Part shown: positions 4,632-31,745 of the stretch, in pieces
How the letters are laid out: every line of letters begins with the position of its first letter
Numbering within the stretch: the first letter of the stretch is position 1
NCBI GenBank assembly: GCA_963724125.1
Contig: CAVRTJ010000011.1
Coordinates: 64,529-128,528 of the forward strand
DNA from: an uncultured Acidobacteriota bacterium
GTDB lineage: Bacteria > Acidobacteriota > UBA4820 > DSQY01
Reading direction: 5' to 3'
DNA length: 64,000 bases
Notes under the pieces: model-generated
What the model saw: the letters and a program-made list of their open reading frames with translations, nothing else
What the model was told of the DNA's origin: nothing
Databases searched by the model: none
Program-made: the position numbers and the translations under genes

Positions 4632-5395
4632 TCAAAGCTGAATGTCGAGGAAAAGGGGCAGGTTGTGAAAAGCCCTGGCCTGTCCCGTGTGATGAAAAAC
4701 ACCCGCAACGAAGTCCTGCGCGACAGCCTTGAAGCCTTCGGGCGGTGGTTCGAGAGACTGAAGATGACAGCTACGAGCTGGTGGATGGCGTCGACCAGCA
4801 GGCCGAAGTGGTCCGCGCCCATGTCCAGCACGATGATCTTCCGTCCATCCGCCGAGGTGTTCCGGCTGGTTTGCAGCCGCGCGGCCACGTCCAGCACGCT
4901 CACGACCTTGCCGCGCAGGGATATGATACCCCGGAGGTAGGCCGGGGCGTTCGGCACCGGAGTGATGAGCGGCTCCTCGATGATCAGTGCGATCTCGTGT
5001 ATCGGAATGGCGTACTTTTCCTTGCCGAGGCTGAAGATGAGCAGCCTCTCGCCGGAATCCCGGGCTTGCGCGTCGGCCTGCACCCCTGTCGGTCCTCGTT
5101 CCTCCGGAAGACCCTCATTCAGGATGTCCCGTGACTCGGCGCCGGGCAGGCCTGCAGCCGCGCTGAGCGGGAGTCCCTTTTTCTCCCCCGGGGAATCGGA
5201 CGAGCTCTTGCGACGGGATTTCACCGCCTTCTCAGGCTGTTTCCCGGATGGCGCCTTTGATGCGCCCGTCCTTCTCTTCTTGGGGCGGGGCTGTTCGGAA
5301 GTGGCCGTCTGCCGCGCTTTCTTACGGATTTTGGCAAGATCCACTGACGCCTCCGTTGACCTATCAATTATACGGGAGCGCCCTACGCTCTGCAA
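4632..5395 (-). CDS. cheW: CheW-like coupling protein with a basic N-terminal extension (one frameshift near 4770)
   Basis: The ORF 4424..5395 has a CheW core ...ERLLIFSLGKEKYAIPIHEIALIIEEPLITPVPNAPAYLRGIISLRGKVVSVLDVAARL...KIIVLDMGADHFGLLVDAIHQLV. The true C-terminus is in the +2 frame: SLEPPPEGFKAVAQDFVAGVF...LPLFLDIQL, with its stop at 4632. Confidence 0.7.
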
Positions 5396-5629
5396 TCACG
5401 CTCGATTCGATACGGACAGGGCGGCCCTCGCAGAGAAACGGCCTGGCGGTTGGAATCCGCGGTACGGCGCGGGTGTTATCTAGCCATATCGGAGGAACGG
5501 GAGCCATGGCGGACAGGGAAAGCGATCGATGGGAACCTCTCCCGAGGCCCTACCCCTGGATTGAGATTCTTCTTGATCTGGGCGATCGTTTCGTGCTGGA
5601 AGATCAAGAATCGAGGCCAGGATCAACAT

Positions 5630-6707
5630 ATGGCGCATGCTGATCGTTTCGATATCTCTTTCATCCCCCTCGCGAACATTTTGGTGTACGGCCCCAGAAC
5701 CCGCACGTGGCGGGTCTGTGGCGGTCGCACTGATCGTGACGGTGTCCTCGTCTTCCTCTTTCTCCTGAAGTTCCCCAGGCTCCTGCCGGTCATTCGGTAC
5801 GCTTCGGTGACCCTGGACGTGACGACCGTAACTGTTCTCCTGCTGAACTACATGCTTCAGGGAGACGTGCTCATGGCCACGAACAGCCAGGTCACATTCC
5901 TGATTTACTTCCTGGCCCTCGCCCTGATAGCGAGCAGGTACGACGAAAAGCTGGCCATCTACGGGGCCTCCCTGGTGGTCGTGGAATACCTCCTCCTGAT
6001 CGCCACGGGCTACCTCTTTTTCGGCCTGCCCGCGGTGAAGCCGGACCCGGGCTACGGCGGTTTTGCGTGGACGAGCCAGATAGGACGGCTCATCATTCTC
6101 GGGGCTGCCTCGGCCATCGCGATCACGGTCGTGAGAAACGCGAGACACCTGCGCGAGAACTCCATCAGGGATTCGCTGACCGGCGTCTACAACAGGGGCT
6201 ATTTCCAGGACGTCCTTCGGCTGGAAATGGCTTACAGCAAACGGCAGCGTACTCCCCTGTCGGTGGTCATGATGGACATCGACAACTTCAAGTCTTCAAC
6301 GACAGCTTCGGTCATCTGAAGGGGGACGGCCTCCTGGTGGCCGTCGGGGACTTTCTCAACCGAAACCTCAGGCGGAGTGACGTGCTGGCGCGGTACGGCG
6401 GCGACCAATTCGTTCTGCTTCTGCTGGAAACAAAGGCCTGCGACGCCTGCCGGACCCTTCTCCGCCTCCAGGGGATGATGGGCGACTGGCTGCGGGGCCT
6501 GATTCCGGAATCCTCGCCCAACATCACATTTTCCCTCGGGGTGGCGTCGATGCACCCGGAGGACGAGGCTCCACCGCCCTCATCGAACGGGCGGATGCCG
6601 CCCTCTACAGAGCCAAGCAGGCGGGCGGGAACGCTGTGTGCGGAGAGGAGCAAGGCATCCTGAAACCCGGGGACCCGTCGCCGCGAAGGCAGGAGGGGCC
6701 CGTCTAG
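5630..6707 (+). CDS. Membrane-anchored GGDEF diguanylate cyclase (two homopolymer frameshifts)
   Basis: MAHADRF... then TM helices then DSLTGVYNRGYFQD...VVMMDIDNFKS. Shifting frame gives FNDSFGHLKGDGLLVAVGDFL...RYGGDQFVLLL (GGDQF active-site motif). Shifting again gives ...TALIERADAALYRAKQAGGNAV. The shift at about 6300 is a TT where TTT is needed (aagtcTTcaacgac). Confidence 0.8.
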
Positions 6708-6731
6708 CGCCCCCGCCTTTGCTCTGCACCC

Positions 6732-7364
6732 TCAACCGCCGGGGCAGGGCGTCAGGTTCCCAGGTAGGAATGAACGCCTCTTAGCCAGAGACGCGTGCCT
6801 TCTTACGGTCGTTTCGCGGATTGAGAGCAGCCCGGCGATTTCGGTGTCGTCGTGCCCGAGAATCTCTCTGAGGATGAAGACAACGCGCTGGCGGGGAGGC
6901 AGGACCTTAACCCACGAATACACCTTCTCGAGGCTGACGGGCGAGCCAAGAAGGTCGAGATCCGGGAGTTCGCTCGGGAGGTCCTCGAGGGAAACGTGGT
7001 CCCGCCTGCTTCGTCGGATGAACGTGTAGGCCCTTCTTACGGCGATCGTCTTGAGAAAGGGCAGGGGATCTTCTCCAGGGCGCAGTCTGGGCAGCGCCTT
7101 GTGAAACCTGAAGAATGTATCCTGGAGAATGTCTTCTACATCCTGGAAGCACGGGACTATCTGAAAGACGAGCCTGAAGACGGCTGGGTAGCAGGCGTTG
7201 AGAAGGCGGCTGAAAGCCGCTTGATCGCCGTTCCGGGCGGAGGCCAGATACTCGACGATTGCTGCGTCGTCGTGGGACTTTTCTTCAGGGGTCAAGGTCC
7301 CTCCGCTAGCCTTTCTATCCTCTGCAAAAACACGCGACCGTCCGTCCGGTTCCCGCGTCTCCAT
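6732..7364 (-). CDS. ECF (sigma-24 family) RNA polymerase sigma factor
   Basis: Region 2 ...AAFSRLLNACYPAVFRLVFQIV... and region 4 ...LPPRQRVVFILREILGHDDTEIAGLLSIRETTVRRHASLAKRR. No adjacent anti-sigma factor is evident. Confidence 0.8.
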   Translation of the reverse strand: METREPDGRSRVFAEDRKASGGTLTPEEKSHDDAAIVEYLASARNGDQAAFSRLLNACYPAVFRLVFQIVPCFQDVEDILQDTFFRFHKALPRLRPGEDPLPFLKTIAVRRAYTFIRRSRRDHVSLEDLPSELPDLDLLGSPVSLEKVYSWVKVLPPRQRVVFILREILGHDDTEIAGLLSIRETTVRRHASLAKRRSFLPGNLTPCPGG

Positions 7365-7394
7365 CGCAAAGTCCCGCCGGACAATCGAAAAGCG

Positions 7395-10300
7395 TTACGG
7401 AAGAACGTGCCAATTCCTGGTTGTTCGGTTGTAGCTCACGGTGACGGATCCTCCGTCACCGTTGACGATTCTGATGGAGACGTCCGTGTCGTGCGGAAAT
7501 ACCGCCTTGAGCGAAGCGCCACTTTTGAGAACGAGCTTGCCCGGGCTCTTGACCTTCACATTCGGCCACGGAGCGCCTCCCACGGTGACCGACGCGTCCT
7601 GGCTGAACCCGCTTCCCTTGAGAATGACTCGGAATGGACTCCTGCGCTTCTTGACGATCTGCACCGTGGGAGGAGCGCTTATTGTGATCGTCCCGCCTTT
7701 GGAGCACGTGGCGCCGGGCAGAGTGGCGGCCATGGACCAGCTGTAAGTTCCTACCGCCGAGTAGACGTGGGTCGCCGAGCCGCCGCCGGATAGGGGGGAC
7801 CCGTCACCGAAGTCCCATTCGTACGTGGGTTCTCCGGCGCAGTTCTGGGTGACCGCGGAGGCGGTGAAGGTCACGGTGTTCCCGATGGCAGCCGCCTGCG
7901 GTGCCTGGGCCGTGCAGGACAGCGTGCAGGGAAGATCAGTGGGTGTCGCCGAGACGACAGGACCGGGGGCGCCCTCGAAGCCCTCCCCGTCTATGCTCGT
8001 CACCACGTAGTCGTAGGTTGTGCCGTTCTGGAGCCCCGCGTCTTCGTAGGTGTCCGCCGAACCGGGAACCGTGGCGATGAACGTCCAGATTCCGCCGCCG
8101 TCGTCAGAGCGATAAACGGCATACTGGGACACCAGGTCCGGCGAAGGGGACCAGAAAAGGCCGACGGCTGAGTTCCCCGCCTGGGCCCGGGGCGAGAGGG
8201 GCGCCTTGGGCGCGGGCATTCGCAGGCGCATCGAGGGATCGCCGAGCAGCACGTTTCCGTCGACGATTCTGGGGGTGGTCGAAGGGGACGCGAACCGGCC
8301 GGCTTCGACCAGGTCGCCCGAGTCTCCGGATTTTTTCAAAGCCGAACGCCTGGCCGAAGACGGCGTCGTTGAACGTTTCTTCTTCGTCGGGGTAGGCGAT
8401 GGTGGAGAAGCCGCAGGAGCCTATGGAGCCCCTGTCGGGGCGGTTGATCGAGCGTCTTCCATGAGCGCGGGATCCCCGACTTCGTCGAATGCCGAATTGT
8501 AACAGCTGCTGTTGACGACGAACGGCAGCGGGACGGACGAGGCCGTGACGGTCGGCAAGCAGGTCTACGTCGGAGTCCTCGCATGTCCCCGATGCGCAGT
8601 TTCGCGACTGGAAAGGCCGTGAAAATCGCATAGTCGGTTTCCCCAGAACGAAACGCCGCTGTGCCCGTCGTAGTGGACCAGGACGGCCTGGTTCCAATCC
8701 GCCCTGATGTCAGATGCACAGGCGTCGGCGTCCGTTCCGTTATAAGGGGGATCGTGGAAGTAGACGTGAAGGTCCTGCCACGGTGGAAGCGTGTAGGTGG
8801 TGCGCAGGTAGTCGTTGTAGGTCTCGAAAACCTGCTCCCACGCACTCGTGTAGGTGTCCGCCACGAATAGTCCCGTCTTGTACCAGTTTCCACTTAACGA
8901 TTGGTCCTCGTAATCCATGATCTTGGTCAGGACACCCGCCAGTTCATCGTAGGACCGCACGGGTAGCCTGCCGACCGCCATGTCCGGGTACCCGTCGCCA
9001 TTCACGTCCGCAAACCAGGCGTCCGAGGGGTAGCGCCCCATGTAGGTACTGTCCGACGTGTCCTCGAACATCATGGTGGGCACCCAGTCCTTGAACGTGG
9101 AATCCTGCATATAGTTCTTGTAGTCGTACGAGGCGTCGCCTATGAGGAGCACGTACTTCGGGACGGGATTCCAGTTCGCGGCGGCGGCCGTCAGGAAGGA
9201 CCGGATGGCTGTGGGGTCGAAGATGCCGTAGGAATAATTGTCGTAGATATCCTGGATGTCCACGACCTTCACGGACATTTCGGATGAGCGCCTGGCGAGG
9301 TAGGCCTGCCAGACGGCGTCGTTCCCGGCGGGGTGAAAATCCGGGTGGGTGATGATGAGCAAATCGGCTCCCAGCGAAGGGGCCGATAGGTCCGGGGGCG
9401 TGACCGTCTGCGCGTCGTCCGGGGAGAAGGGGACTGCTCGATCAGAAAGACACGGCGCGCCGATCACGGACGGATCGGCGGCCATCTGGAACGTGGCCAC
9501 CCCGTCCGAGAAGTCCGCTCCAATTAACAACGTGGGGATCTTTAGTCCCGTCTCGGCATCGCTCTTGGACAGGTCCAGGATGTAAGGGGCCGAGGCGTAG
9601 CCGGCGCTTGAATACTGGGCATTCTGATTCGGGGCGGTAAAAAGGAGCGTTCCCGAATCGGCGTCGAAGGTCCGGGTGTAGGTCACGTTGAAGTAGTCCG
9701 GAATCTGGTAATCTCCGCAGATGCCGGTATGGTTAGTGAGAGCGCGTTTCCGGCAGGTGAAGGCGGGCCGTCGAAGGTCCAGTCGAAGGTGGCGAGGGCC
9801 TTGCCCGTCCACGTGGCGGGATCGGGACCGGAAGACGGAGATGCGCCGTTCAGCGTGGCCTGCAGGGTGTGTGTGCCGTCTGTAAAACTGGCCATGAGGG
9901 CATCGACCGTGCACACCCGTTCCCGGCCGCGGGGTGGGGAAGCACAAGAGTGTATGTCCCTGGCTGAGGTCGAGGCCGAGAGAACGGGTCCCCAGAACCA
10001 GAGGTCGCCATCGGGACGCAGGTGGTAGATGCAGTAGAAGAAGTCGTTCTTCTCGAAGTGCACCGTCGCGTCGAAGCTCGTCTTCTCGGGATACCCTGAG
10101 ACGGGAGCGGCGTCCGCGGATGTCATTCGCAGACCCGGGCTGGAATCTTCGTAGAGCCAGTAGACTGGGTATCGGTGAAAGTCGCCGCCATTGAAGACGG
10201 GGCGGTCCTTCACGTCCATCTTCTGGCCGTAGAAGACGATGGCGTTGCCCGGCGCCGAAGGACCCCGTCTGCGGCCCTTCGATGACGATGGGAATCTCGA

Positions 10301-11031
10301 TGCCCCGGCACATCAGGTGCAGGTTCGCGGGATCGATTCCGTCGACGGGGAAATCCGTGATCGACAAGGTAGGCGTAATCGAGGCGGTAGAGGCCGTCCC
10401 TTGAGACTTTGATCCGGAGCTTGGGCGCCGCCGGCGCGTAGGCGATCACGGGATTCAGCTGGACTGCGGGGGACGATTGTGGGACGGACGGGCGATGCCG
10501 GGGCGATTCCCGCATCTTCGGGATTGAGAAAAAGGTCCGCACCGGCGGGACGGGTGCATCCGCCCGTCGCGCCCGTCTTTCGAACCTTGATCCAGGCCGG
10601 GAACTTCGACCCGGACCGTGAGGCTCGTCAACAGAGAGGCCGTGCCGCCCGTATCGCCGGCCTTGAGCGGATAGATGAGGATCTCCTGGAAATCCGTCGC
10701 CCGCCACCTGCCTCGCGTGCCGAGGACCACCGCGGATCCGGTCCGGCACGGGAGAGTGCCGGCGATAATCGGCGTCCAGCTCTCGGCGACAACCCGAACC
10801 GTAGGCTGTCCCGCCCCGGGGGGAAGCGCCACCTTGAGAGAAACCACGGGCGGGCGGGTGCGATGTTCCTGGACTCTCCGGGGAGGTCCAGGCCGCTATC
10901 TGTCCCGCGTCGGGGCTCCAGCGGACGAGAAGGCCGCCATCCGTGCGGACGGCCGTCGAGGCGGCGCATACCGCGTTACCCGCACAAGCCAGGATGACGA
11001 TGATGATCCATGCAGAGAGACTGCGCCTCAT
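7395..11031 (-). CDS. Secreted gingipain-like cysteine peptidase (peptidase C25) with FN3, PKD and a C-terminal IPT-like domain; at least 5 frameshifts
   Basis: Signal peptide MRRSLSAWIIIVILACAGNAVCAAS from the ATG at 11031. C25 N-terminal and catalytic region: ...LLIITHPDFHPAGN...KVVDIQDIYDNYSYGIFDPTAIRSFLTAAAANWNPVPKYVLLIGDASYDYKN...MAVGRLPVRSYDEL...AVLVHYDGHSGVSFWGN. FN3: LFWSPSPDLVSQYAVYRSDDGGGIWTF...YDYVVTSID. PKD: YEWDFGDGS...THVYSAVGTY. The C-terminal roughly 85 aa is shared with the protein at 30030..31745. Pieces lie in ORFs 10210..11220, 10455..10847, 9683..10219, 8565..10367, 8104..8697 and 7395..8339. Confidence 0.7.
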
Positions 11032-11164
11032 GGCTACATGATAGGAGGAAAGACGGTGAAAAACAACGGCGCGGAATGGCCAATGAAAGACGTCGAAGCA
11101 ATTGATTGAGGACTGCGTGGGAGACAAAGCGAGACTCGTGGGAGATCCTGTGATGTTGCCTCTA

Positions 11165-11290
11165 TCAGCTGACGTAAGGACCCGAACCGCAACTGGGGCT
11201 TCCGCTTCCGGCTTTTGCACAGGATCCCGCCTTGGCCTCGATCTTTTCCTTGTAAACGACTGCGGGCTTCTCGTATTTCTTCTTCTTCAT
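11165..11290 (-). CDS. Candidate RiPP precursor peptide, 41 aa: MKKKKYEKPAVVYKEKIEAKAGSCAKAGSGSPSCGSGPYVS
   Basis: Not in the ORF track (too short). Reverse complement of 11165-11290 translates cleanly ATG to TGA. SD-like GGAGAGAGGGA sits 5 nt upstream of the ATG. It begins 54 nt downstream of the radical SAM/SPASM gene stop, in the same direction and frame. The N-terminal half is Lys-rich and leader-like. The C-terminal half is a Gly/Ser-rich core with two Cys. Confidence 0.55.
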   Translation of the reverse strand: MKKKKYEKPAVVYKEKIEAKAGSCAKAGSGSPSCGSGPYVS

Positions 11291-11344
11291 CAATCCCTCT
11301 CTCCAGGAGCCAGCATCTAATATACGGGGCGGCCGCTCATGGTG

Positions 11345-12457
11345 TCAACCATTTCTCCGTATGGGAACTAAGTTCACAGTGCTTCGCCCCGTCAAAGTCT
11401 TCTCGTCGTCCGCGACCCGTTTACGGATCTTCGCGATTCGGAGGTACTGCTCGTCGGGCCGCATGGGGTCGCCGTTCCTGAGCTGGGAGAGGCCCGGGCA
11501 GGAAAAGCAGAAAGCGTGATCGTCGACCGTCCTCTTGATGGCGGCCGGCAGGTTGCGGTTGACCTCTCGCACCTTCTCGAGGAGAGGGGAGTTCTGCCAG
11601 ATATCGGCGATCCTGTGGTCGCGCACGTTCCCGATGGACTCCTTCCACTGGGTGCACGGCTGGATGTCGCCGGTAGGGCGTGATGTGGATGGTGCCCGTG
11701 CCGACCGTGCAGTTGAATTGGCCCGGCTCACGCTCGAAGGGGGAATTGCCGATATCTAGTCCCGAGGCGCTGTAGAGACTGCCGGATGGTCTCATCGGAG
11801 GCCATGAGGTCGAGCGGGTACTCCTGACCGTCGTCCGAAATGGTCAGATACCGGGTCGAAAAAGACGGGAAAGTCGAACCGGTCGCCGATGGCCTTGATC
11901 TGTTCGAGCTGGTCTTCCACCAGCCGGGTGACCACGCACTTGAGGTAGACCCTTAGGTGCCGTTCCTTCAAGAGGGCCAGCGCCTTCATCTGGCGTTCGA
12001 AAGACCCCTTGGACTGGGTCAGCGCTTCGGCGGTTGCCGCGTCGGCCCCGTGCAGGGAGAGTTCGATGCAGTTGGGCGCCAGCTCTTCCAGCCGGTCGGC
12101 CACGCGCTCCGTGATCGATGCGCCGTTCGTGAATATCCTCAGGGCGAAGGATCGGTCCTTGGCGGCGTTTGCGATGTCCCAGAACCTTGGGTGGACAAGG
12201 GCCTCTCCGCCGGTCAGCGTGAGGTAGAGGACGCCCATGTCCCTGAGCTGGTCCATCACGTCCACGACCTCCTCGAAGGTCAGGGGAGGCGAGGCCGGTT
12301 CGGGCGGGGGGGCGATCCGGGCCTGGTTCTTCCGCTGGACCGGGTTGTAGCAGAAGCGGCAGGCCAGGTTGCAGGCGTAGGTCAGTTCGATGGAGGCGAA
12401 GATCGGATGGGCCTTGTGGATCGCCTTCCCGAAAAGTTCAGCCAGAGGTGAATCCAT
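11345..12457 (-). CDS. Radical SAM / SPASM-domain peptide-modifying enzyme (two frameshifts)
   Basis: N-terminus MDSPLAELF...IELTYACNLACRFCYNP (CxxxCxxC). Middle frame ...DIGNSPFEREPGQFNCTVGTGTIHITPY. Third frame ...GDIQPCTQWKESIGNVRDHRIADIWQNSPLLEKVREVN...HAFCFSCPG gives the SPASM auxiliary-cluster cysteines. Covered by ORFs 11792..12457, 11421..11795 and 11345..11731. Confidence 0.75.
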
Positions 12458-12459
12458 GC

Positions 12460-12732
12460 TCAGTCCGCATCCTTGAGGAGGGCTCCCGACGCAAGCATTT
12501 CGGCCACGAAGGTCCTGGCGTCGGCCAGCGCTTCATCGAAGGTAACCTCGTAGGTCTCCGCGATATTTCCCGCGATGTCTTCGAGCGCTTCTTCGGCGTG
12601 TTCCCAGACGAAGGTCCCGATCTCGTTCAGGACCTGCACTTCGCCTTCCCGGTTGAAAATGAGGACGGCCTGGCCTTCGATCGTGCGCCAGGACACGTCC
12701 GGGTTCCTCTTGAGCTTCAGGGGCTCATCCAT
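12460..12732 (-). CDS. PqqD-family peptide chaperone (RiPP recognition element)
   Basis: 90 aa: ...VSWRTIEGQAVLIFNREGEVQVLNEIGTFVWEHAEEALEDIAGNIAETYEVTFDEALADARTFVAEMLASGALL. Its stop ATGA-overlaps the rSAM start. Its start overlaps the upstream kinase stop. Confidence 0.75.
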   Translation of the reverse strand: MDEPLKLKRNPDVSWRTIEGQAVLIFNREGEVQVLNEIGTFVWEHAEEALEDIAGNIAETYEVTFDEALADARTFVAEMLASGALLKDAD

Positions 12733-13612
12733 TGCGGTCCTCCCGGTCTACGGCCCCCCAGAAGGAGGCCGCCTTGCGGAAGTATAACGTCTTCGGCGGG
12801 ACTGAGCGACAGCAGGCCTGGACGAGAGGCGCCAGCCTGTCGGCGCGGGCCGCCGGATCGGCGACAAAGGGGCAACAGGCCAATACCTGCACCATGGCCA
12901 CGGCAGGCGGCAGGCTCTCTACCCCGTCCTCCATCGCCTGGCTCAGTCTGTAAAGTCCCCTCAAGGGGTAGGTGCCGCGCTCTTTGATTCGCTGCGGAAA
13001 GCTTCCTGCAAAGGGCGTCGTGGACGCCAGCCAGCGTCCGGATTCCCGGGTGACGAGCACGAGATCGTCCGACAGGACGGCACAACCCGGGCTGAAGGCC
13101 ACAACCGTCGATTTGCCCGCTCCGGACGGGCCGAAGAAGAGGAAGGCCCGGCCGTCGCGGACGACGCCCGCGGCGTGCAGGACGAAGCCCCCGTAGTCGA
13201 GGGCCAGGTCGGCGATGATCCACCGGAGATAATTCTCCATGGCTCTCAGTGAGACCTTCGTGTCACAGGAGTGGGAGAGGCGGAGAAGGCCCTTCGCACC
13301 TTGCCGAAAGGCTGCGAAATCGTGCGAAAGCAGGCGCCTGCCTTCTCCCAAAGGGGTGTCCTCGAGACGTAAGAAATGATCTTCCGCGGGCTGGAGGTAG
13401 GAAGGCGCGCCGGCCGTTATGCGGACTGTGTGGAGCGGCGTGGCTTCGGACAGGAAAGGCCCGTATTGCTGGAGGGCGGCGTTGTGAATGGTCTCGTCGA
13501 GTCCCGCAAAACAAACGGCCAGGCGGCCTACCTCGACAACGAGGTTCAGGCCGCCCGGCGTGGAAAGGTCTTCCGCAAAGTGGTCGAGCGCGGGACGGTA
13601 GTCCACGGGCAA
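12725..13612 (-). CDS. HprK-related (HPr kinase C-terminal-like) P-loop kinase
   Basis: 295 aa with ...GGFVLHAAGVVRDGRAFLFFGPSGAGKSTVVAFSPGCAVLSDDLVLV..., a Walker A loop in the HprK_C-like arrangement. It is the first gene of the kinase-PqqD-rSAM-peptide unit. Confidence 0.55.
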   Translation of the reverse strand: MPVDYRPALDHFAEDLSTPGGLNLVVEVGRLAVCFAGLDETIHNAALQQYGPFLSEATPLHTVRITAGAPSYLQPAEDHFLRLEDTPLGEGRRLLSHDFAAFRQGAKGLLRLSHSCDTKVSLRAMENYLRWIIADLALDYGGFVLHAAGVVRDGRAFLFFGPSGAGKSTVVAFSPGCAVLSDDLVLVTRESGRWLASTTPFAGSFPQRIKERGTYPLRGLYRLSQAMEDGVESLPPAVAMVQVLACCPFVADPAARADRLAPLVQACCRSVPPKTLYFRKAASFWGAVDREDRNG

Positions 13613-13666
13613 TCGGTCTCCTGTGCCTGAGACAGGGCTCGAAGCCGTGTCTCAGAACGCGAGCGG

Positions 13667-14182
13667 CTACCTCTCCCGGATTCTCGGAGGACGTTGCAGG
13701 TCGGAGGTGGGGGGCGTCGCTCCGCCCTCGTGCTCCGATGCCGTCCTGGAATCCCCGGACGAGACCGCCACGAGATCGAGTTCGGGGAAGAAGAAGCCCA
13801 CTTCCCTCTGCGCGTTCTCAGGGCTGTCGGAACCGTGGATCGCGTTTCGCTGGATGTCCGTCCCGAACAAGCCGCGGACGGTGTCCGCAGGGGCCTTGGT
13901 CGAATCCGTGGGTCCCATGACTTCGCGCAAACGGGCCACCGCGTTTTCTCGCTCCAGACACGCGGCGACGATGGGCCCGGAGGTCATGAATGCGACCAAC
14001 TCGGCGAAAAAGGGCCTCTCCCTGTGAACCGCGTAGAAAGCTTGTGCCTGCTCAACCGTCAGGTGCAGCATCCGCAGGCCTCTCACGACGAAACCCTCGC
14101 CGAGCAGGTGTTGGAGCATGTGGCCGTATGCCTTGTTTTCCACGGCGTCGGGTTTGAATAGGGTCAAGGTCCTTTCGATCAT
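13667..14182 (-). CDS. ndk: Nucleoside diphosphate kinase (C-terminus extended about 30 aa, possibly by frameshift)
   Basis: MIERTLTLFKPDAVENKAYGHMLQHLLGEGFVVRGLRMLHLTVEQAQAFYAVHRERPFF...NAIHGSDSPENAQREVGFFFPELDLV. Confidence 0.85.
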   Translation of the reverse strand: MIERTLTLFKPDAVENKAYGHMLQHLLGEGFVVRGLRMLHLTVEQAQAFYAVHRERPFFAELVAFMTSGPIVAACLERENAVARLREVMGPTDSTKAPADTVRGLFGTDIQRNAIHGSDSPENAQREVGFFFPELDLVAVSSGDSRTASEHEGGATPPTSDLQRPPRIRER

Positions 14183-14195
14183 GATTCGTCGGTCC

Positions 14196-14765
14196 TCACT
14201 TTCCCAGGAGCGCGGCCCCGTATTCGTGCGCCGCTTCTCGGCCGAGCCGCAGGGCCTTCTTGTTCAGTTCCTCGGTGCCCTTCGGGACCCTGCCCATGAC
14301 GGCCTTTTCGAGGGCCTCCGGGGAAACCACCGTGGTGAGTTCGCATATCAGGCCCAGGGCGACGATGTTGGCCACGAACTCTCTTCCCACCTCCTCGCGG
14401 GCGATGCGGGTGATGGGGGCCTTCACGAAACGCAGGCCTTCGGGCATTTCCGTGGGCACGAGGTCGCTGTCGGCGATCACGAGCGCCGATTTCGGCACGT
14501 CCTTGAGATACTTCGCGGCCGCTGCTTCGGTCATCAGAAGCATGAGGTCGATCTTGGTCGCCTTGGGGTAGTCGATCTCTTCGTCCGACAGGATGATCTC
14601 GCTCTTGCTCGCGCCGCCGCGGGATTCGGGCCCGTACGACTGGCTCTGCACGGCGTTCTTGCCTTCGAAAATGGCAGCCTCCGCCAGGATGACGCCGCCG
14701 AGCACGAGACCCTGTCCGCCGGATCCCGCCAATCTTATTTCATATCGCTTGCCCATGAGTACCAC
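14196..14765 (-). CDS. korC: 2-oxoacid:ferredoxin oxidoreductase gamma subunit
   Basis: 189 aa: ...EIRLAGSGGQGLVLGGVILAEAAIFEGKNAVQSQSYGPESRGGASKSEI.... Confidence 0.8.
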   Translation of the reverse strand: MVLMGKRYEIRLAGSGGQGLVLGGVILAEAAIFEGKNAVQSQSYGPESRGGASKSEIILSDEEIDYPKATKIDLMLLMTEAAAAKYLKDVPKSALVIADSDLVPTEMPEGLRFVKAPITRIAREEVGREFVANIVALGLICELTTVVSPEALEKAVMGRVPKGTEELNKKALRLGREAAHEYGAALLGK

Positions 14766-14876
14766 TCCTTAGTCAGCTCCTTACCCTGCGTCGGCATGCG
14801 TGACGCCTGGACAGGCAAGTCCGAGGCGTCCACGCGCTTTCCGCACGGTCCCGCTTGAGCGGGATGGCCGGGTTGC

Positions 14877-15716
14877 TCACACGTTGGCCGCGGCCTTGGT
14901 CTCCTGCGGGCGAACGCGCTCGATCAGCTTGTCGTACTCCTCGCAGAACTCGGGGCGCGTAGCCTGGTAGAGAACACCCACGGGATACTTGCCCTCTTTC
15001 TCCTCCTCGGAGAGTTTATCGGAAAGCCGCACGTTGTAGGTCATGCCCTTGTAGCGCTGCATCATGTCCGTGGCGTCCCCCCACTTGTTCTGGCGTCCGA
15101 AGTACGTCGTGCACTGGGACCAGGCGTCCACGACGGAGAATCCCTTGTTCTTGAGGGAAGCGAGGATGACGCGGTCCATGGCCACGGCGTCCATGTCGAG
15201 AGCACGTCCCACGAAGGTGGCGCCGGCGCCCTGGGCGAGCCCGCACACGTCGAAAGGTCGTTCGATCGCGCCGTAAGGTGCAGTCGTTCCGCGGGAGCCC
15301 GTGAAGGTCGTGGGCGACGCCTGTCCGCCCGTCATGCCGTAGATGTTGTTGTTGAAGACGATCAGGCTGATCTCGATGTTGCGCCTGCAGGCGTGGATGA
15401 AGTGGTTCCCGCCGATGGCCATGGCGTCGCCGTCGCCGGACACGACGATCACGTGGAGCTTCGGGTTGGCGACCTTGACGCCCGTGGCGAAGGGGAGCGC
15501 GCGCCCGTGGGTCGTGTGGAGCGTGTTGAAATCCAGGTAACCCGGCGTGCGGCTGGAGCAGCCGATGCCGCTCACGACGACCACGTCGTCCTTGTTCCAC
15601 TGGAGCTTATCGATGGCGCGCAGGATGGACTTCATGATGGTGCCGTGGCCGCAGCCGGGGCACCAGATGTGCGGCATCTTGTCCTTGCGCAGGTATTCGA
15701 AATAATCCATGGACAT
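14877..15716 (-). CDS. korB: 2-oxoacid:ferredoxin oxidoreductase beta subunit (TPP-binding)
   Basis: ...IWCPGCGHGTI...VVVSGIGCSSR...VSGDGDAMAIGGNHFIHACRRN.... Confidence 0.85.
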   Translation of the reverse strand: MSMDYFEYLRKDKMPHIWCPGCGHGTIMKSILRAIDKLQWNKDDVVVVSGIGCSSRTPGYLDFNTLHTTHGRALPFATGVKVANPKLHVIVVSGDGDAMAIGGNHFIHACRRNIEISLIVFNNNIYGMTGGQASPTTFTGSRGTTAPYGAIERPFDVCGLAQGAGATFVGRALDMDAVAMDRVILASLKNKGFSVVDAWSQCTTYFGRQNKWGDATDMMQRYKGMTYNVRLSDKLSEEEKEGKYPVGVLYQATRPEFCEEYDKLIERVRPQETKAAANV

Positions 15717-15719
15717 GGC

Positions 15720-16856
15720 TCAGTCTCCCATTATGGCGGAGAGGATGAGAGAAGGCTGGATGGGCTCGCCGTTGACCCTGTTCAGGCCTTCGACGGGAAT
15801 GGCCTTCCCGAGCACCCGTTCCACTTCGAGCTTGTATTGGCCGAGGTTCATTTCCGGCACGATGACCTTCTTGGCGTGCGCCGCCGCCGCCAGGATCTGC
15901 TTCTCGGGCAGAGGGAAGAGCGTGATCGGCCTGAAGAGTCCGGCCTTGACGCCTTTTTCCCGCGCTTCTTCGACGGCCCTCTTGGCGGAGCGTGACGTCG
16001 AGCCGTAGGCCACGACCAGCACTTCCGCGTCGTCGGTCCGGTGGTTCTCGACGAGTGTCAGTTCGTCGATGTGCTTGTCGACCTTGTCCAGCAGGCGACG
16101 GTTTCCCGACTCCAGGAGTTCGGGATTGCCCGTCGGGAAACCGGTCTTGTCGTGGTTGAGGCCCGTGACGTGGAAACGGGCGCCCTCGCCGTAATTCATC
16201 ATGGGCGGGATGAGATTCTCGGTTGTCTCGTAAGGATAGTAGGTGTCGCCGGGCTTGAAGGAAGGCTTGTGCCTGTTCTCGATCTTGATCTCGGAGGCCG
16301 GCGGGATCACCAGCTTCTCGCGCATGTGCGCGACGACCTCGTCGATGGCCAGAACCACGCACGTGCGCATCTTTTCCGCGAAGTTGAAGGCGTGCACCGT
16401 CGTGTCGAAGACCTCCCTGATCGTCGCGGGCGACAACACCACGGCCGGATGGTCGCCGTGCGTCCCCCAGCGCGTCTGGAGCACATCAGACTGGGATGGT
16501 CCCGTCGGGTTACCCGTGGATGGTCCGCCGCGCATGACGTTGACCACCACGCAAGGCACTTCGGCCATCATGGCGAAACCGATGTTCTCCTGCATGAGGG
16601 AGAATCCCGGTCCGGACGTGGCGGTCATGGCCTTCTGTCCCGCCAGGCTGGCGCCGATGATTGCGCCGATGGAGGCCAGTTCGTCCTCCATCTGAATGAA
16701 CTTGCCGCCCAGTTTCGGAAGGCGCCCGGACATCTTCTCGGCGATTTCAGAAGAGGGAGAGATGGGGTAGCCGGCGAAGAAACGGCAGCCGACTGCAAGC
16801 GCGCCCTCTACGCAGGCTTCGTTTCCTGCAAGGAACTTGATATTGGGGGTTGTCAT
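15720..16856 (-). CDS. korA: 2-oxoacid:ferredoxin oxidoreductase alpha subunit
   Basis: 378 aa: ...GNEACVEGALAVGCRFFAGYPISPSSEIAE...TATSGPGFSLMQENIGFAMMAEVPCVVVNVMRGGPSTG.... Confidence 0.85.
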   Translation of the reverse strand: MTTPNIKFLAGNEACVEGALAVGCRFFAGYPISPSSEIAEKMSGRLPKLGGKFIQMEDELASIGAIIGASLAGQKAMTATSGPGFSLMQENIGFAMMAEVPCVVVNVMRGGPSTGNPTGPSQSDVLQTRWGTHGDHPAVVLSPATIREVFDTTVHAFNFAEKMRTCVVLAIDEVVAHMREKLVIPPASEIKIENRHKPSFKPGDTYYPYETTENLIPPMMNYGEGARFHVTGLNHDKTGFPTGNPELLESGNRRLLDKVDKHIDELTLVENHRTDDAEVLVVAYGSTSRSAKRAVEEAREKGVKAGLFRPITLFPLPEKQILAAAAHAKKVIVPEMNLGQYKLEVERVLGKAIPVEGLNRVNGEPIQPSLILSAIMGD

Positions 16857-16867
16857 GGTTTTAATCC

Positions 16868-17179
16868 TCAGTCAACAAATATGGCGAAATCGGGACACCG
16901 GATCTCGCAGAGCATGCACTTGGTACAGGCGTCGGCGTCCACCACCTCGGCGTGGCGAAAGCCCATGCCCAGGACCTTTTCGGGGCATAGCGCGACGCAG
17001 ATATTGCAAAGGCTGCCTTTGCAGTGGCCGGGGATGACTGTAATCTGGAGGTCCTTCTTGACCTTTCGGCCGTGGCCGGATACGGCAATTTTGTCCTTGT
17101 GGATATCCTTGAGGCGCGGCGAGCCGACATCGGCCCCCTCCTCCAGGGTGCCGCTGTGGCGTTCGAGAGTGGTTGGCAT
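16868..17179 (-). CDS. korD: 2-oxoacid:ferredoxin oxidoreductase delta subunit (2x[4Fe-4S] ferredoxin)
   Basis: Two CxxCxxCxxxCP motifs (CKGSLCNICVALCP, CTKCMLCEIRCP). The D-A-B-C gene order matches OorDABC/KorDABC, and sucCD is adjacent. That favours 2-oxoglutarate as substrate, with pyruvate not excluded. Confidence 0.7.
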   Translation of the reverse strand: MPTTLERHSGTLEEGADVGSPRLKDIHKDKIAVSGHGRKVKKDLQITVIPGHCKGSLCNICVALCPEKVLGMGFRHAEVVDADACTKCMLCEIRCPDFAIFVD

Positions 17180-17239
17180 GGTCTATCTCCTCACTGTGGG
17201 CCGCATGCGTCCGGCTGGGCCCCGGAGCCGTTTGGAACG

Positions 17240-17272
17240 TAAACAGGGTGGGTAACCGCAGCTACCCACCCC
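17240..17272 (-). terminator. Putative intrinsic terminator between sucD and korD
   Basis: Minus strand reads GGGTGGGTA-GCTGCGGT-TACCCACCC (9-bp perfect stem) followed by UGUUUACGUU. Moderate support; the U-tract is short. Confidence 0.35.
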
Positions 17273-17306
17273 AAGGTTCCTAAATATAACTCCCGTCCTT
17301 GATTTT

Positions 17307-18182
17307 TCAAGCTTTCAGGGCCTTCTGCATGGCGTCGCCGATCTCGGTGGGCGATTTGACCACGGTTGCGCCGGCCTCGGCCAGGGCGGCCATCTTTTCG
17401 GCGGCCGTGCCCTTGCCGCCGGCGATGATGGCGCCGGCGTGGCCCATGCGGCGTCCCGGAGGCGCCGTCTGCCCGGCGATGAAGGCCACCACCGGTTTCG
17501 TCATCGTGTTCTTGATGTAGGCCGCGGCCTCCTCCTCTGACGTACCGCCGATCTCGCCGATGAGGACAACGCCTTCGGTGGCCGGGTCGGCGTTGAAGAG
17601 TTCGAGCGCGTCCACGTGGGTCGTTCCCGGGACGGGATCGCCGCCGATTCCGATGCATGTGGTTTCGCCGAGGCCGGACTCGGTCAACTGCCACACGGCC
17701 TCGTAGGTGAGGGTGCCGGAGCGGGAGATGACGCCCACGCGCCCGGGCTTGTGGATGTAGCCGGGCATGATGCCCATCTTGCATTCTCCTGGCGTGATGA
17801 TGCCGGGGCAGTTCGGCCCGATGAGGCGGGTCTTCGTCCCGCACAGGGCTGCTTTCACGCGGGCCTCGTCTTTGGCCGGAATTCCCTCGGTGATGCAGAC
17901 CACCGTGCCGACGCCGGCCGCGGCCGCCTCCAGGATCGCATCCGCCGCGAAGGGCGGCGGGACGAAAATGAGGGCGGCATCGACGCCCTGCTGTTTGACC
18001 GCCTCCGCGACCGTATCGTAAACGGGGACCTTGTCGTCCCAGGACGTTCCGCCCTTTCCGGGCGTGACGCCGGCCACGATCTTGGTTCCATATTCCAGGC
18101 ACTGGCGGGCGTGGAAGGAGCCTTCCTTGCCTGTGATTCCCTGGACCACAACGCGTGTCTCTTTATTAACAAGTATGCTCAT
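17307..18182 (-). CDS. sucD: Succinyl-CoA synthetase alpha subunit
   Basis: [27 protein letters not shown]...[14 protein letters not shown]...GIGGDP.... Confidence 0.9.
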
Positions 18183-30029: not shown

Positions 30030-31745
30030 ATGAAGGCGGCAAGGTTCGTGCTCTGGATGCTCATCGGCACCCTTCTTTTCGGCTTCGCGGCCAGAGCCCA
30101 GGCCGTCTATCAGGCCGGGCGGAGCGGTGGAGGGTACGCTCTCGTAGCGGGCGATCACGTGCGTTTCACTCCGGGGAGCAATCCCATCCCCGACTTCCTC
30201 TATCTCTATGTCGAATCCGGCGAGGGAAATGTGATCGTGTCCGATGGTGTGGGAGACGTAAGCACCGGGTTATATTTCAGCACTGGCGATCTCATCCTGC
30301 TCGGTACGCCCGGGCCGTTCGACCTCTATTTCCAGGGCGGCGCCATCCAGATCGTTTACGGAGGAGCGCAGGTCGGGGCCCTGCCGGCACCGGTATGCGG
30401 GACCGGCGTTCAAGGTCCGGTCATTCTGCTTCCGGACAAAAAATACAGTGCGGCGGTCCAGTCGTCGTCCGAGACTTCGATCAAGGTCGGGGTGTACGCT
30501 ACCCTCCAATCCTTCTACAGCGGGAGCCTGCCCTATCTCCTCGCCAGCGATTACACGCGGACCGGTTCGTATGCGGTTCCCACGTGCACGGGATCGGAGT
30601 GCTGCAACCCGACCTCGCTCGTCTTCACGGTGAACAACATCACCGGGTCCAGTTTCGAAGTCGTTCAGTTGGATGCGGACCCCGCCGCGGACTTCGACTA
30701 CGCCCTGTCCCAGCCGGTCCCTCTGGCCGCCGCGGCACATGCCAGCCCGACGAACGGTGCACCGCCCCTGACCGTCGACTTCCAAGGTAAGGCCTCAGGG
30801 GGATCGCCGCCCTACAACTACACCTGGGACTTCGGGGACGGAAGCGCCAAGAAGACGTCCCAGAACCCCAGTCACACGTACGACACCGCCGGGACCTTCA
30901 ATCCCGTCCTCAAGGTAACCGATTCCGATGGCGGTGTGGCCAAAGACGAGAGCCTGTCCATCGACGTGAACACTCCGATCACCGTGACGGCCAATGTTAC
31001 GCCGTCTTCGGGCGATATCCCGCTGACCGTGACGTGCACCGCGAGCGCATCGGGCGGCACGCCGCCCTACACCTACGATTGGGACTTCGGAGAGGGCGGC
31101 CAGGGATCGGGGGCAAGCACCACGCACATCTACACGAAAGCGGGCGCCTACAGCGTGTCCCTCTCCGTGGAGGACAGCGTGGGAGTCGTGAACCAGGAAT
31201 TCGGCGTCGTGGTCCGCGCCATCGATCCCAATGCCCTTTACGCCTCGGCACAGGCCGACGTGACAGCCGGTTCCGTTCCGCTCACGGTGCACTTCACCGG
31301 TTCGGCCTCGGGGGGGGCACCTCCCTACACCTACGCGTGGAACTTCGGCGACGGCGGACAGTCGACGGAGCAGAACCCCACCCATACCTACACGACCGTC
31401 GGGACATACCACCCGGTTTTCACCGCGACCGATTCCACGAGTGCCTACACGACCGACAACCTGACCGTTCAGGCCAACCCGGGCGAGAGCGTCCCAGTTA
31501 TCTTCCAGGTCAAGAAGAAGGGGAGTCCCTTCCGGCTGAAAATACTCGGGAGCGGTTTCGCTCCGGGGTGCCAGGTGCTGATCGACGGCGTCACGGTGCC
31601 GATGGTGAGCTACAAGACGGCCAACAAGGTCGTGGCGAAGAATGGCCGCGCGCTCAAGGACATGGTCCCCAAGGGAACCGCGGTGTGCGTCACCGTCCGT
31701 AACCCCCAGGGCTCCGAGTCGCCCTGTTTCAGCTTCACGCGCTAG
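30030..31745 (+). CDS. Secreted protein with 4 PKD domains and the shared C-terminal IPT-like domain
   Basis: RBS GAGGAG then ATG 30030. Signal peptide MKAARFVLWMLIGTLLFGFAARAQA. PKD motifs YNYTWDFGDGS, YTYDWDFGEGG, YTYAWNFGDGG. C-terminus VIFQVKKKGSPFRLKILGSGF... is homologous to the C-terminus of the C25 peptidase. Confidence 0.8.
   Translation: MKAARFVLWMLIGTLLFGFAARAQAVYQAGRSGGGYALVAGDHVRFTPGSNPIPDFLYLYVESGEGNVIVSDGVGDVSTGLYFSTGDLILLGTPGPFDLYFQGGAIQIVYGGAQVGALPAPVCGTGVQGPVILLPDKKYSAAVQSSSETSIKVGVYATLQSFYSGSLPYLLASDYTRTGSYAVPTCTGSECCNPTSLVFTVNNITGSSFEVVQLDADPAADFDYALSQPVPLAAAAHASPTNGAPPLTVDFQGKASGGSPPYNYTWDFGDGSAKKTSQNPSHTYDTAGTFNPVLKVTDSDGGVAKDESLSIDVNTPITVTANVTPSSGDIPLTVTCTASASGGTPPYTYDWDFGEGGQGSGASTTHIYTKAGAYSVSLSVEDSVGVVNQEFGVVVRAIDPNALYASAQADVTAGSVPLTVHFTGSASGGAPPYTYAWNFGDGGQSTEQNPTHTYTTVGTYHPVFTATDSTSAYTTDNLTVQANPGESVPVIFQVKKKGSPFRLKILGSGFAPGCQVLIDGVTVPMVSYKTANKVVAKNGRALKDMVPKGTAVCVTVRNPQGSESPCFSFTR

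Follow-up and report, generated by a model that had tools for sequence, protein, structure and literature searches.

In a 64,000-nucleotide stretch of DNA from an uncultured Acidobacteriota bacterium (positions 64,529 to 128,528 of contig CAVRTJ010000011.1, GenBank assembly GCA_963724125.1; hereafter the window), a small open reading frame (ORF) of 41 codons lies between a gene for a radical S-adenosylmethionine (radical-SAM) enzyme and a gene for a secreted cysteine peptidase. The genes directly upstream on the same strand form a cassette that encodes a kinase-like protein of the ScmC family, a discrete PqqD-family protein, and the radical-SAM enzyme. Comparison of related loci suggests that the small ORF probably encodes a ribosomally made precursor peptide, which would be the cognate substrate of this cassette. 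A preliminary description of the same DNA had already proposed the precursor of a radical-SAM-modified peptide, its leader being basic and its core of small residues holding two cysteines, and this proposal is supported here; the kinase-like ScmC gene, the invariant C-terminal serine, and the C25-like peptidase partner were absent from that description.

The peptide gene and its family

The precursor peptide gene occupies positions 11165-11290 of the minus strand, and runs as 41 codons followed by TGA from the ATG at 11290-11288 to the stop codon at 11167-11165. The minus strand reads ATG AAG AAG at the start and AGC TGA at the end, and the product, MKKKKYEKPAVVYKEKIEAKAGSCAKAGSGSPSCGSGPYVS, has 41 residues. 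The checked translation is exactly the one originally quoted, and the coordinates were also correct, the location on the minus strand having been left unmentioned. The gene was further said to share its frame with the upstream radical-SAM gene, which is indeed the case: the last radical-SAM segment spans 11345-11731, the distance between 11731 and 11290 is 441 nucleotides, or 3 x 147, and the frame is open back to the radical-SAM stop codon. On the minus strand, a purine-rich, Shine-Dalgarno-like stretch, GGAGAGAGGGA, spans 11304-11294, and only TTG separates it from the ATG, a gap of 3 nucleotides rather than the 5 given before; a GGAG, GAGG, or AGGA motif stands no more than 20 nucleotides from the start in 76 of 85 homologues. 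Upstream of it, a match to the sigma-70 promoter consensus (TTGACA, 18 nucleotides, TATATT; 11319-11348, minus strand; 11 of 12 positions matched) overlaps the stop codon of the radical-SAM gene, and 28 nucleotides separate its end from the peptide ATG. This candidate promoter pattern was found once, as opposed to 0.2 occurrences expected from shuffled sequences, and it recurs in 13 of the 85 homologues, mostly in close relatives. An Rfam scan of positions 10000-14500 gave no match, and the peptide itself carries no signal peptide and no known sorting signal.

Short ORFs are abundant in this DNA, with 136 of at least 30 residues within 13 kb of the window at 62% guanine plus cytosine, and for this reason an ORF of such a size, taken alone, is no evidence of a gene. 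The region is also more crowded than had been believed, since the statement that there was no competing long ORF overlooked three frames that overlap the gene, at 10210-11220 (minus strand), 11102-11320 (plus strand), and 11215-11481 (plus strand). It is conservation that gives the gene its significance. A protein search retrieved an identical peptide and four homologues at 73-82% identity, and the same neighbourhood was present on the contigs of these homologues. The identical product is already among the NCBI/ENA gene calls, where it is unnamed, and the label ‘unannotated’ holds in the latter sense alone. In one relative, at positions 7321-7446 of locus L020 (related loci are designated L001 onwards; L020 stems from NCBI assembly GCA_964507185.1), the peptide gene is uncalled, and an overlapping 44-residue ORF in another frame is called instead. 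A metagenome scan with the peptide alignment confirmed at least 191 loci with a family peptide, and a profile search with the family reached 1057 protein clusters at E<=0.01, none of which has a Pfam domain or a name beyond ‘hypothetical protein’. Likewise, neither Pfam nor NCBIfam gave a match, at E values up to 1-10, for the window peptide, for three typical members, or for six distant peptides linked to ScmC genes.

Selection on the reading frame was analysed in 78 distinct DNA sequences, over a gap-free stretch of 21 codons that begins at the leader Tyr and ends at the Lys beyond the first cysteine (Cys1). Mean pairwise differences within the family amount to 0.21, 0.13, and 0.46 at codon positions 1, 2, and 3, respectively, and the family-wide ratio of nonsynonymous to synonymous differences (pN/pS) is 0.24; in the comparison of the window with its close relatives L001, L004, L007, and L008, pN lies at 0.03-0.09 and pS at 0.54-0.83. 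The pattern of codon-position variability and the pN/pS values identify the quoted frame, among the overlapping ORFs, as the one under selection, and the 41-codon ORF is almost certainly a real coding gene that is subject to purifying selection.

The features that define the family were read from 84 distinct members, parsed from all fetched loci (more than 100). The leader contains the motif Y-x-K-P-x-[I/V], in which the Tyr (Y6 in the window) and the Pro (P9) are invariant and Ile or Val stands at +5, and Cys1 follows at a distance of 18 residues from the Tyr. All 84 members have exactly two cysteines, and in all of them the sequence A-[R/K]-A is followed by exactly two residues and then by Cys1. 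A Lys at Cys1+2 is present in 80 members, a Gly at -5 from the C-terminus in 72, a Pro at -4 in 79 (forming G-P-x-x), and a C-terminal Ser in 83. The residue before Cys1 is variable (S in 32, T in 20, and A in 20), which leaves the C-terminal Ser as the only invariant hydroxyl residue. The two cysteines are separated by 6-10 residues; the Cx9C spacing described earlier is true of the window copy (C24 and C34) but is shared by only 12 of the 84 members. In the window, residues 1-21 (11228-11290, minus strand) are the presumed leader, with Y6-E-K-P9-A-V inside and A19-K20-A21 at its end, while residues 22-41 (11168-11227, minus strand) are the presumed core, GSCAKAGSGSPSCGSGPYVS, which includes C24, K26, C34, P38, and S41 and has no acidic residue. 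This boundary was placed on the basis of the invariant A-[R/K]-A and the two residues before Cys1, together with the precedent of the LPP precursors of Bacillota (PMC13381572).

The link between the peptide and the enzymes upstream rests on gene order. A small homologous ORF follows directly after the PqqD and radical-SAM pair in at least 30 independent loci, with enzyme identities down to about 30%; the preliminary description had said that a lack of such ORFs at syntenic loci would refute it, and they are not lacking. The order ScmC, PqqD, radical-SAM, peptide or peptides, and C25-like peptidase is fixed at enzyme identities of 27-82%, and includes loci that are only 27-40% identical to the reference L001. 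In addition, several loci hold two or three tandem, diverged peptide paralogues between the radical-SAM and C25-like genes (L011, at 6702-7501, as well as L041, L042, L046, L083, L090, L091, and L093). It is on account of this persistent order and of the tandem paralogues that the peptide is regarded as the probable cognate of the cassette.

Genes of the cassette and its surroundings

The first gene of the cassette (12725-13612, minus strand) encodes a 295-residue ScmC-family protein with a P-loop fold of the HPr-kinase/phosphoenolpyruvate carboxykinase (PEPCK) type. A precomputed PF27840 match exists for the identical protein P0006 and for all 120 homologues listed, while matches to the NCBIfam models ScmC, HprK_rel_A, and HprK_rel_B are all below cut-off. 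Its invariant residues are H146, the Walker A sequence G161xSGxGKxT169, and D182-D183, which we take to be the catalytic set of HPr kinases. A structural model built with 28 homologues as input has a predicted local distance difference test (pLDDT) score of 94, and in Foldseek comparisons it matches ATP-dependent PEPCK (E 3e-7) and HPr kinase/phosphatase (1ko7 and 3tqf, E 3-4e-4). The predicted fold and the catalytic residues thus support a kinase activity for ScmC.

The second gene (12460-12732, minus strand) encodes a discrete PqqD-family protein of 90 residues (Pfam PqqD, 8.5e-12), the presumed leader-recognition element, whose position is conserved among related loci and whose best NCBIfam match, the lasso PqqD chaperone, is below cut-off. 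The third (11345-12457, minus strand) encodes the radical-SAM enzyme, with a CxxxCxxC motif and a SPASM/Twitch-type C-terminal domain (Pfam Radical_SAM and SPASM, the latter at 30.7 bits). The CxxxCxxC motif is invariant, and across 21 homologues only four cysteines are conserved after it, which suggests a Twitch-like C-terminal domain with one auxiliary cluster and not a full SPASM domain, which has seven to eight cysteines and binds two. The solved proteins closest to the enzyme are SkfB, a thioether synthase, and PqqE. Scores against the NCBIfam models of characterised maturases are far from their cut-offs, being 82.6 versus 625 bits for StsB, 62.7 versus 300 for SkfB, and 57.3 versus 850 for AlbA.

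Downstream of the peptide gene lies the gene for a secreted, C25-like cysteine peptidase of the PorU/gingipain clan (7395-11031, minus strand), which accompanies the cassette in every locus that has an upstream radical-SAM gene and enough downstream sequence. The protein begins with a signal peptide, MRRSLSAWIIIVILACAGNAVCAA, and combines a Pfam Peptidase_C25 domain (PF01364, 8e-51) with FG-GAP, fn3, and PKD domains. A GH[GS] motif and a Cys located about 58 residues later, which make up a His/Cys dyad, are invariant in 14 homologues. PorU is the closest solved relative, and matches to PorU-type NCBIfam models are below cut-off (183 versus 420 bits for the PorU equivalog). A further region of the window, at 30819-31718 (plus strand), encodes a sequence with 36% identity to the PKD-rich C-terminal part of this protein. 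In some relatives an extra gene of 957 residues, with a weak BNR-like match only, stands between the peptide and C25-like genes (L001 at 8256-11129 and L027 at 4637-5782); it is absent from the window.

Further downstream, an extracytoplasmic function (ECF) sigma factor gene (6732-7364, minus strand; Pfam Sigma70_r2 and r4_2) follows the C25-like gene, and an ECF sigma gene holds the same position in L001 and L002; it is considered here as part of the neighbourhood only. The cassette includes no exporter gene and no immunity gene. On its other side, Acidobacteriota-type loci have the cassette adjoining ndk, korABG, and sucCD, and the order sucCD, ferredoxin, korABG, ndk, ScmC (window positions 13667-18182; also L001, L020, L022, and L024) persists where ScmC identity has fallen to 40%, an unusually stable tie between a peptide-modification cassette and genes of central metabolism.

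Proposed pathway and competing explanations

The following pathway can be put forward for the cassette, with the caution that each specific chemical step is assigned a likelihood that at best approaches even. The peptide gene would be transcribed from its own promoter-like site and then translated, as the selection on its frame implies. By analogy with lasso and LPP systems, the discrete PqqD protein would bind the leader through Y6-x-x-P9-x-V and hand the core to the enzymes. The radical-SAM enzyme could then introduce one or more intramolecular cross-links via C24 and C34, with sacti- or ranthi-type thioethers as the most likely products, and ScmC could phosphorylate the peptide, most likely at the invariant Ser41, in the manner of the HPr-kinase homologues that act on paeninodin-type precursors. 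Finally, the leader may be removed at A-[K/R]-A (A19-K20-A21), either by the C25-like peptidase, for which this would be an Arg/Lys-type site, or by a signal-peptidase-like enzyme, for which it would be an Ala-x-Ala-type site; this is the weakest step of the scheme.

The main argument for the cysteines as targets of the radical-SAM enzyme is provided by relatives that lack both. A genome scan with the ScmC alignment, in which a generic P-loop pattern was used, found at least 10 loci, which represent distant relatives and not a census. Among these, small ORFs with a Y/W-x-[K/R]-P leader and two cysteines adjoin distant ScmC genes in Acidobacteria (L013), Thermomonas (L015), Nitrospiria (L016), and a deltaproteobacterial bin (L018). 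Two Chloroflexota loci, from an Anaerolineales bin (L010, 5644-11569) and a Chloroflexia bin (L012, 5596-10484), have YxKP-leader peptides without cysteines; ScmC, PqqD, and C25-like genes are present in both and the radical-SAM gene is absent, so that the cysteines and the radical-SAM gene are missing together, in what are only two loci. The two cysteines shared by all 84 members, the kinship of the enzyme to SkfB, and the four cysteines conserved in its C-terminal domain also speak for the cysteines as its targets. These cysteine-less loci look like LPP-type systems outside Bacillota.

A number of observations weigh against the proposed pathway. Intact orthologues of the radical-SAM enzyme (359-369 residues) reach no NCBIfam cut-off, and among NCBIfam models they align best, over the full length, with the mycofactocin maturase, an enzyme whose target is a C-terminus rather than Cys. 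The 18-residue distance from the leader Tyr to Cys1 equals that from the Tyr to the phosphorylated Ser3 of LPP precursors, a hint that ScmC may act there instead. Distant peptides linked to ScmC end in D (L010) or L (L016), which shows that phosphorylation of a C-terminal Ser would not be universal for this protein family. Concerning leader removal, a signal peptide is present on the C25-like protein but not on the precursor, and no exporter is encoded in the cassette; moreover, L010 also contains a Peptidase_S24-like gene, seen only at that distant locus, and the C25-like enzyme consequently need not be the leader peptidase. In about a third of the longer metagenome loci, neither an ScmC gene nor a radical-SAM gene is found closer than 4 kb to the peptide. 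The peptide gene of these loci has a second, frequent context, downstream of two secreted proteins without a Pfam or NCBIfam match; in L078 (1761-3983), L087 (1546-3970), and L089 (1020-3428) these are signal-peptide proteins of 222-293 and 435-567 residues, and PqqD, too, is missing over the same 4 kb. Such genes may be additional copies remote from a cassette, or the peptide may have another use there.

The window copy of the system poses a difficulty of its own. The upstream radical-SAM gene of the preliminary description is present, but it is split over three frames in the window: relative to L004, a close relative with 89% nucleotide identity, a single ‘A’ is inserted at each of three non-homopolymer sites, 11849, 11780, and 11674. 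Deletion of the three A's restores a gap-free protein of 369 residues that is 94.6% identical to that of L004. The first 900 nucleotides of the C25-like gene have, again with respect to L004, at least 8 further indels of 1-2 nucleotides (about 10165-10884), while the ScmC, PqqD, peptide, and housekeeping genes are intact. The frame breaks are either an assembly fault or the mark of a defective copy of the pathway in the source genome; if the lesions are real, the peptide of that genome would stay unmodified, or only phosphorylated.

The alternative that survives best accepts the peptide as a precursor but assigns to the radical-SAM enzyme a chemistry other than Cys thioethers. It could be an oxidation of the C-terminal G-P-x-x-S of the MftC type, an epimerisation, or a carbon-carbon or Lys-linked cross-link, the cysteines serving to form a disulfide loop or to bind a metal. 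The alignment of the orthologues to the mycofactocin maturase and the failure to reach any curated cut-off agree with this possibility, as does the fact that G-P-x-x-S and the Lys at Cys1+2 are conserved as well as the cysteines themselves. It is set back by the cysteine-less relatives devoid of a radical-SAM gene, by the identity of the nearest solved structure (the sactipeptide synthase SkfB), and by the lack of other mycofactocin genes, the MftC score of the orthologues being 106.6-107.3 bits versus a cut-off of 265. On balance we consider it unlikely, if the most serious of the competing explanations.

Two further alternatives are less probable still, to a similar degree. According to one, the precursor is phosphorylated mainly near the junction of leader and core, as in LPPs: ScmC would act at or beside Cys1 (Ser23/Cys24), and the C-terminal Ser would have another role, such as recognition by the C25-like peptidase. 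The distance from Tyr to Cys1, equal to that between Tyr and phospho-Ser3 in LPP precursors (PMC13381572), speaks for it, as do the cysteine-less peptides of L010 and L012, which retain a Ser at core position 2 (the L010 peptide, in turn, not ending in Ser), and the Peptidase_S24-like gene of L010, which has its counterpart in LPP systems. The family at large points the other way, in that the residue before Cys1 is Ser in only 32 of 84 members, with Thr in 20 and Ala in 20, and Thr is not accepted by LppK at its site (PMC13381572), while the C-terminal Ser is kept in 83 of 84.

According to the other, the peptide is not a free natural product but a partner of the secreted C25-like protein, either processed or attached to a cell-surface acceptor by this PorU-like enzyme, or regulating or inhibiting it. 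In its favour, each cassette locus that extends far enough, in both Acidobacteriota and Chloroflexota, has the C25-like gene after the peptide; the best curated and solved matches of the protein are to the sortase-like PorU, the second context of the family likewise places it beside secreted proteins, and the cassette is without an exporter or immunity gene. Yet neither a signal peptide nor a known sorting signal is present in the peptide, and there is no C25 gene near the ScmC-linked peptides of the Thermomonas, Nitrospiria, and deltaproteobacterial loci, so that we hold a partnership of this kind to be improbable. The weakest alternative, a chance ORF or an untranslated spacer between the radical-SAM and C25 genes, could appeal to the plentiful short ORFs and to the lack of a Pfam or NCBIfam match, but is extremely improbable and already refuted as far as comparative data can do so, given conservation of the peptide in hundreds of loci, the pN/pS of 0.24, the invariant residues, the tandem paralogues, and the conserved Shine-Dalgarno-like motifs.

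If the assignment of the peptide to the cassette is retained, the proposal can be extended, in a distinctly speculative manner, to an undescribed class of RiPPs (ribosomally made peptides with post-translational modifications), which would be widespread in soil and sediment bacteria of the Acidobacteriota type. Its core would be cross-linked at Cys by a Twitch-type radical-SAM enzyme and (poly)phosphorylated by ScmC, and would then be processed or attached outside the cell by a PorU-like C25 peptidase. We see this complete scenario as less likely than not; were it true, the long-orphan ScmC-type cassettes would gain a substrate, and pathways that combine a kinase with a recognition protein would reach well beyond Bacillota.

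Relation to known systems

The LPPs of Paenibacillus alginolyticus (LppA/K/B/S/D/N), described in 2026, depend on an HprK-like kinase, a discrete recognition protein, an archaeal-type signal peptidase, an exporter, and a nucleoside triphosphate (NTP) transferase (PMC13381572). Their leader, YxxPxVLxHQxIxFET, is cleaved after Thr-1, and Ser3 of the core is polyphosphorylated; the authors consider the family to be restricted to Bacillota (PMC13381572). The window system shares with them the combination of a discrete PqqD-type protein, an HPr-kinase-like enzyme, a short precursor, and a dedicated peptidase gene, and also the YxxPx[V/I] start of the leader, a hydrophobic/acidic stretch of equal length before the core, and an equal distance between Tyr and the presumed cleavage site. 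The invariant Cys1 falls exactly at the position of the LPP phospho-Ser. Discrete recognition proteins of the PqqD type are documented to bind the pattern [Y/W]xxPx[L/V/I/F/A] (PMC13381572). There are also differences: a radical-SAM enzyme and conserved Cys, both found here, are absent from LPP systems, and where the LPP phosphosite is a Ser at core position 3, the window family has the invariant Cys1. Conversely, the SpI-like (SipW-type), archaeal-type leader peptidase, the MsbA-like exporter, and the NTP transferase of LPP systems have no counterpart in the window cassette. Finally, unlike the LPPs as delimited by their authors, the present family occurs mainly in Acidobacteriota-type metagenome bins and is linked to a C25-like peptidase.

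In paeninodin-type lasso systems (PadeK), HPr-kinase homologues phosphorylate the C-terminal Ser of precursors that otherwise share little (PMC8498205). Common to these and to the window system are the HPr-kinase homologue, a PqqD-type protein that binds the precursor or, in the window system, would bind it, a [Y/W]xxP leader, and a C-terminal Ser, the latter being the phosphorylated residue in the paeninodin type (PMC8498205). The window cassette differs in having a radical-SAM enzyme and two invariant cysteines, and in lacking a lasso cyclase and a B2 transglutaminase-type peptidase. A lasso peptide, which the YxxP leader and the match of the PqqD protein to lasso chaperones had brought to mind, was accordingly rejected, there being no gene for an Asn-synthetase-like cyclase or for B2 and, in the core, no Asp or Glu, which a lasso macrolactam would need at position 7-9.

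SynChlorMet cassettes (ScmC, ScmD, ScmE, and ScmF) have the same types of protein in the same order, namely ScmC, a PqqD homologue, and a PqqE-like radical-SAM/SPASM enzyme. The window has a single radical-SAM gene and not two, and its proteins miss the cut-offs of the four NCBIfam models (36.1 versus 125 bits for ScmC, 21.9 versus 100 for ScmD, 62.9 versus 400 for ScmE, and 78.9 versus 400 for ScmF). No precursor is known to have been identified for the SynChlorMet cassette in the TIGRFAM text. A canonical-looking cassette of this kind is present in L024 (4108-10743), where, as in L025, three ScmC genes, PqqD, two radical-SAM/SPASM genes, and a B12-binding radical-SAM gene occupy the same site beside ndk-korABG. 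No small ORF of the YxxP type was found in these two-radical-SAM cassettes of L024 and L025, nor in L023.

The window system resembles sactipeptides and ranthipeptides (SkfA/SkfB, subtilosin AlbA, StsB) in its short precursor, whose leader is basic and whose core of small residues contains Cys, in a radical-SAM enzyme with an auxiliary-cluster domain (of the Twitch type in SkfB and, it appears, here), and in a PqqD-type element. Here, however, the recognition element is a separate protein and not an N-terminal domain, the enzyme has kinase-like and C25-like partners, and no cut-off of a curated maturase is reached. A mycofactocin-like reading was rejected because MftC is below cut-off, the peptide ends in Y-V-S and not in the Val-Tyr of MftA, and no mft genes are nearby.

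Defining features of these groups having been looked for and found missing (for sactipeptides, a maturase that reaches a curated cut-off), the system is assigned neither to the LPP, lasso, sactipeptide, or mycofactocin systems nor to the curated SynChlorMet family. A literature search, outside which most subscription journals lay, found no publication that deals with SynChlorMet or ScmC cassettes, that joins HprK-like enzymes to radical-SAM maturases, or that places C25 peptidases in clusters of this kind. The present analysis offers a concrete candidate substrate for a widespread ScmC-family/PqqD/radical-SAM cassette, and draws attention to a peptide family, over 1000 sequence clusters in size, for which there is no name and no Pfam or NCBIfam model. 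It would unite in one system HPr-kinase-type phosphorylation of peptides and radical-SAM cross-linking, so far described separately, and would add the C25/PorU-like peptidase as a RiPP partner not previously described in the searchable literature; the cysteine-less Chloroflexota relatives suggest, in addition, that LPP-like systems are not confined to Bacillota. The invariant elements of the family (YxKP, A-[RK]-A, the two cysteines, Lys at Cys1+2, and the C-terminal G-P-x-x-Ser-COOH) are directly testable, and should be of interest to the natural-product and radical-SAM fields. The system is best filed next to LPPs, paeninodin-type kinases, and sactipeptides, its closest described relatives, as a combination of an HprK-like kinase, a radical-SAM enzyme, and a C25-like partner that follows known RiPP logic.

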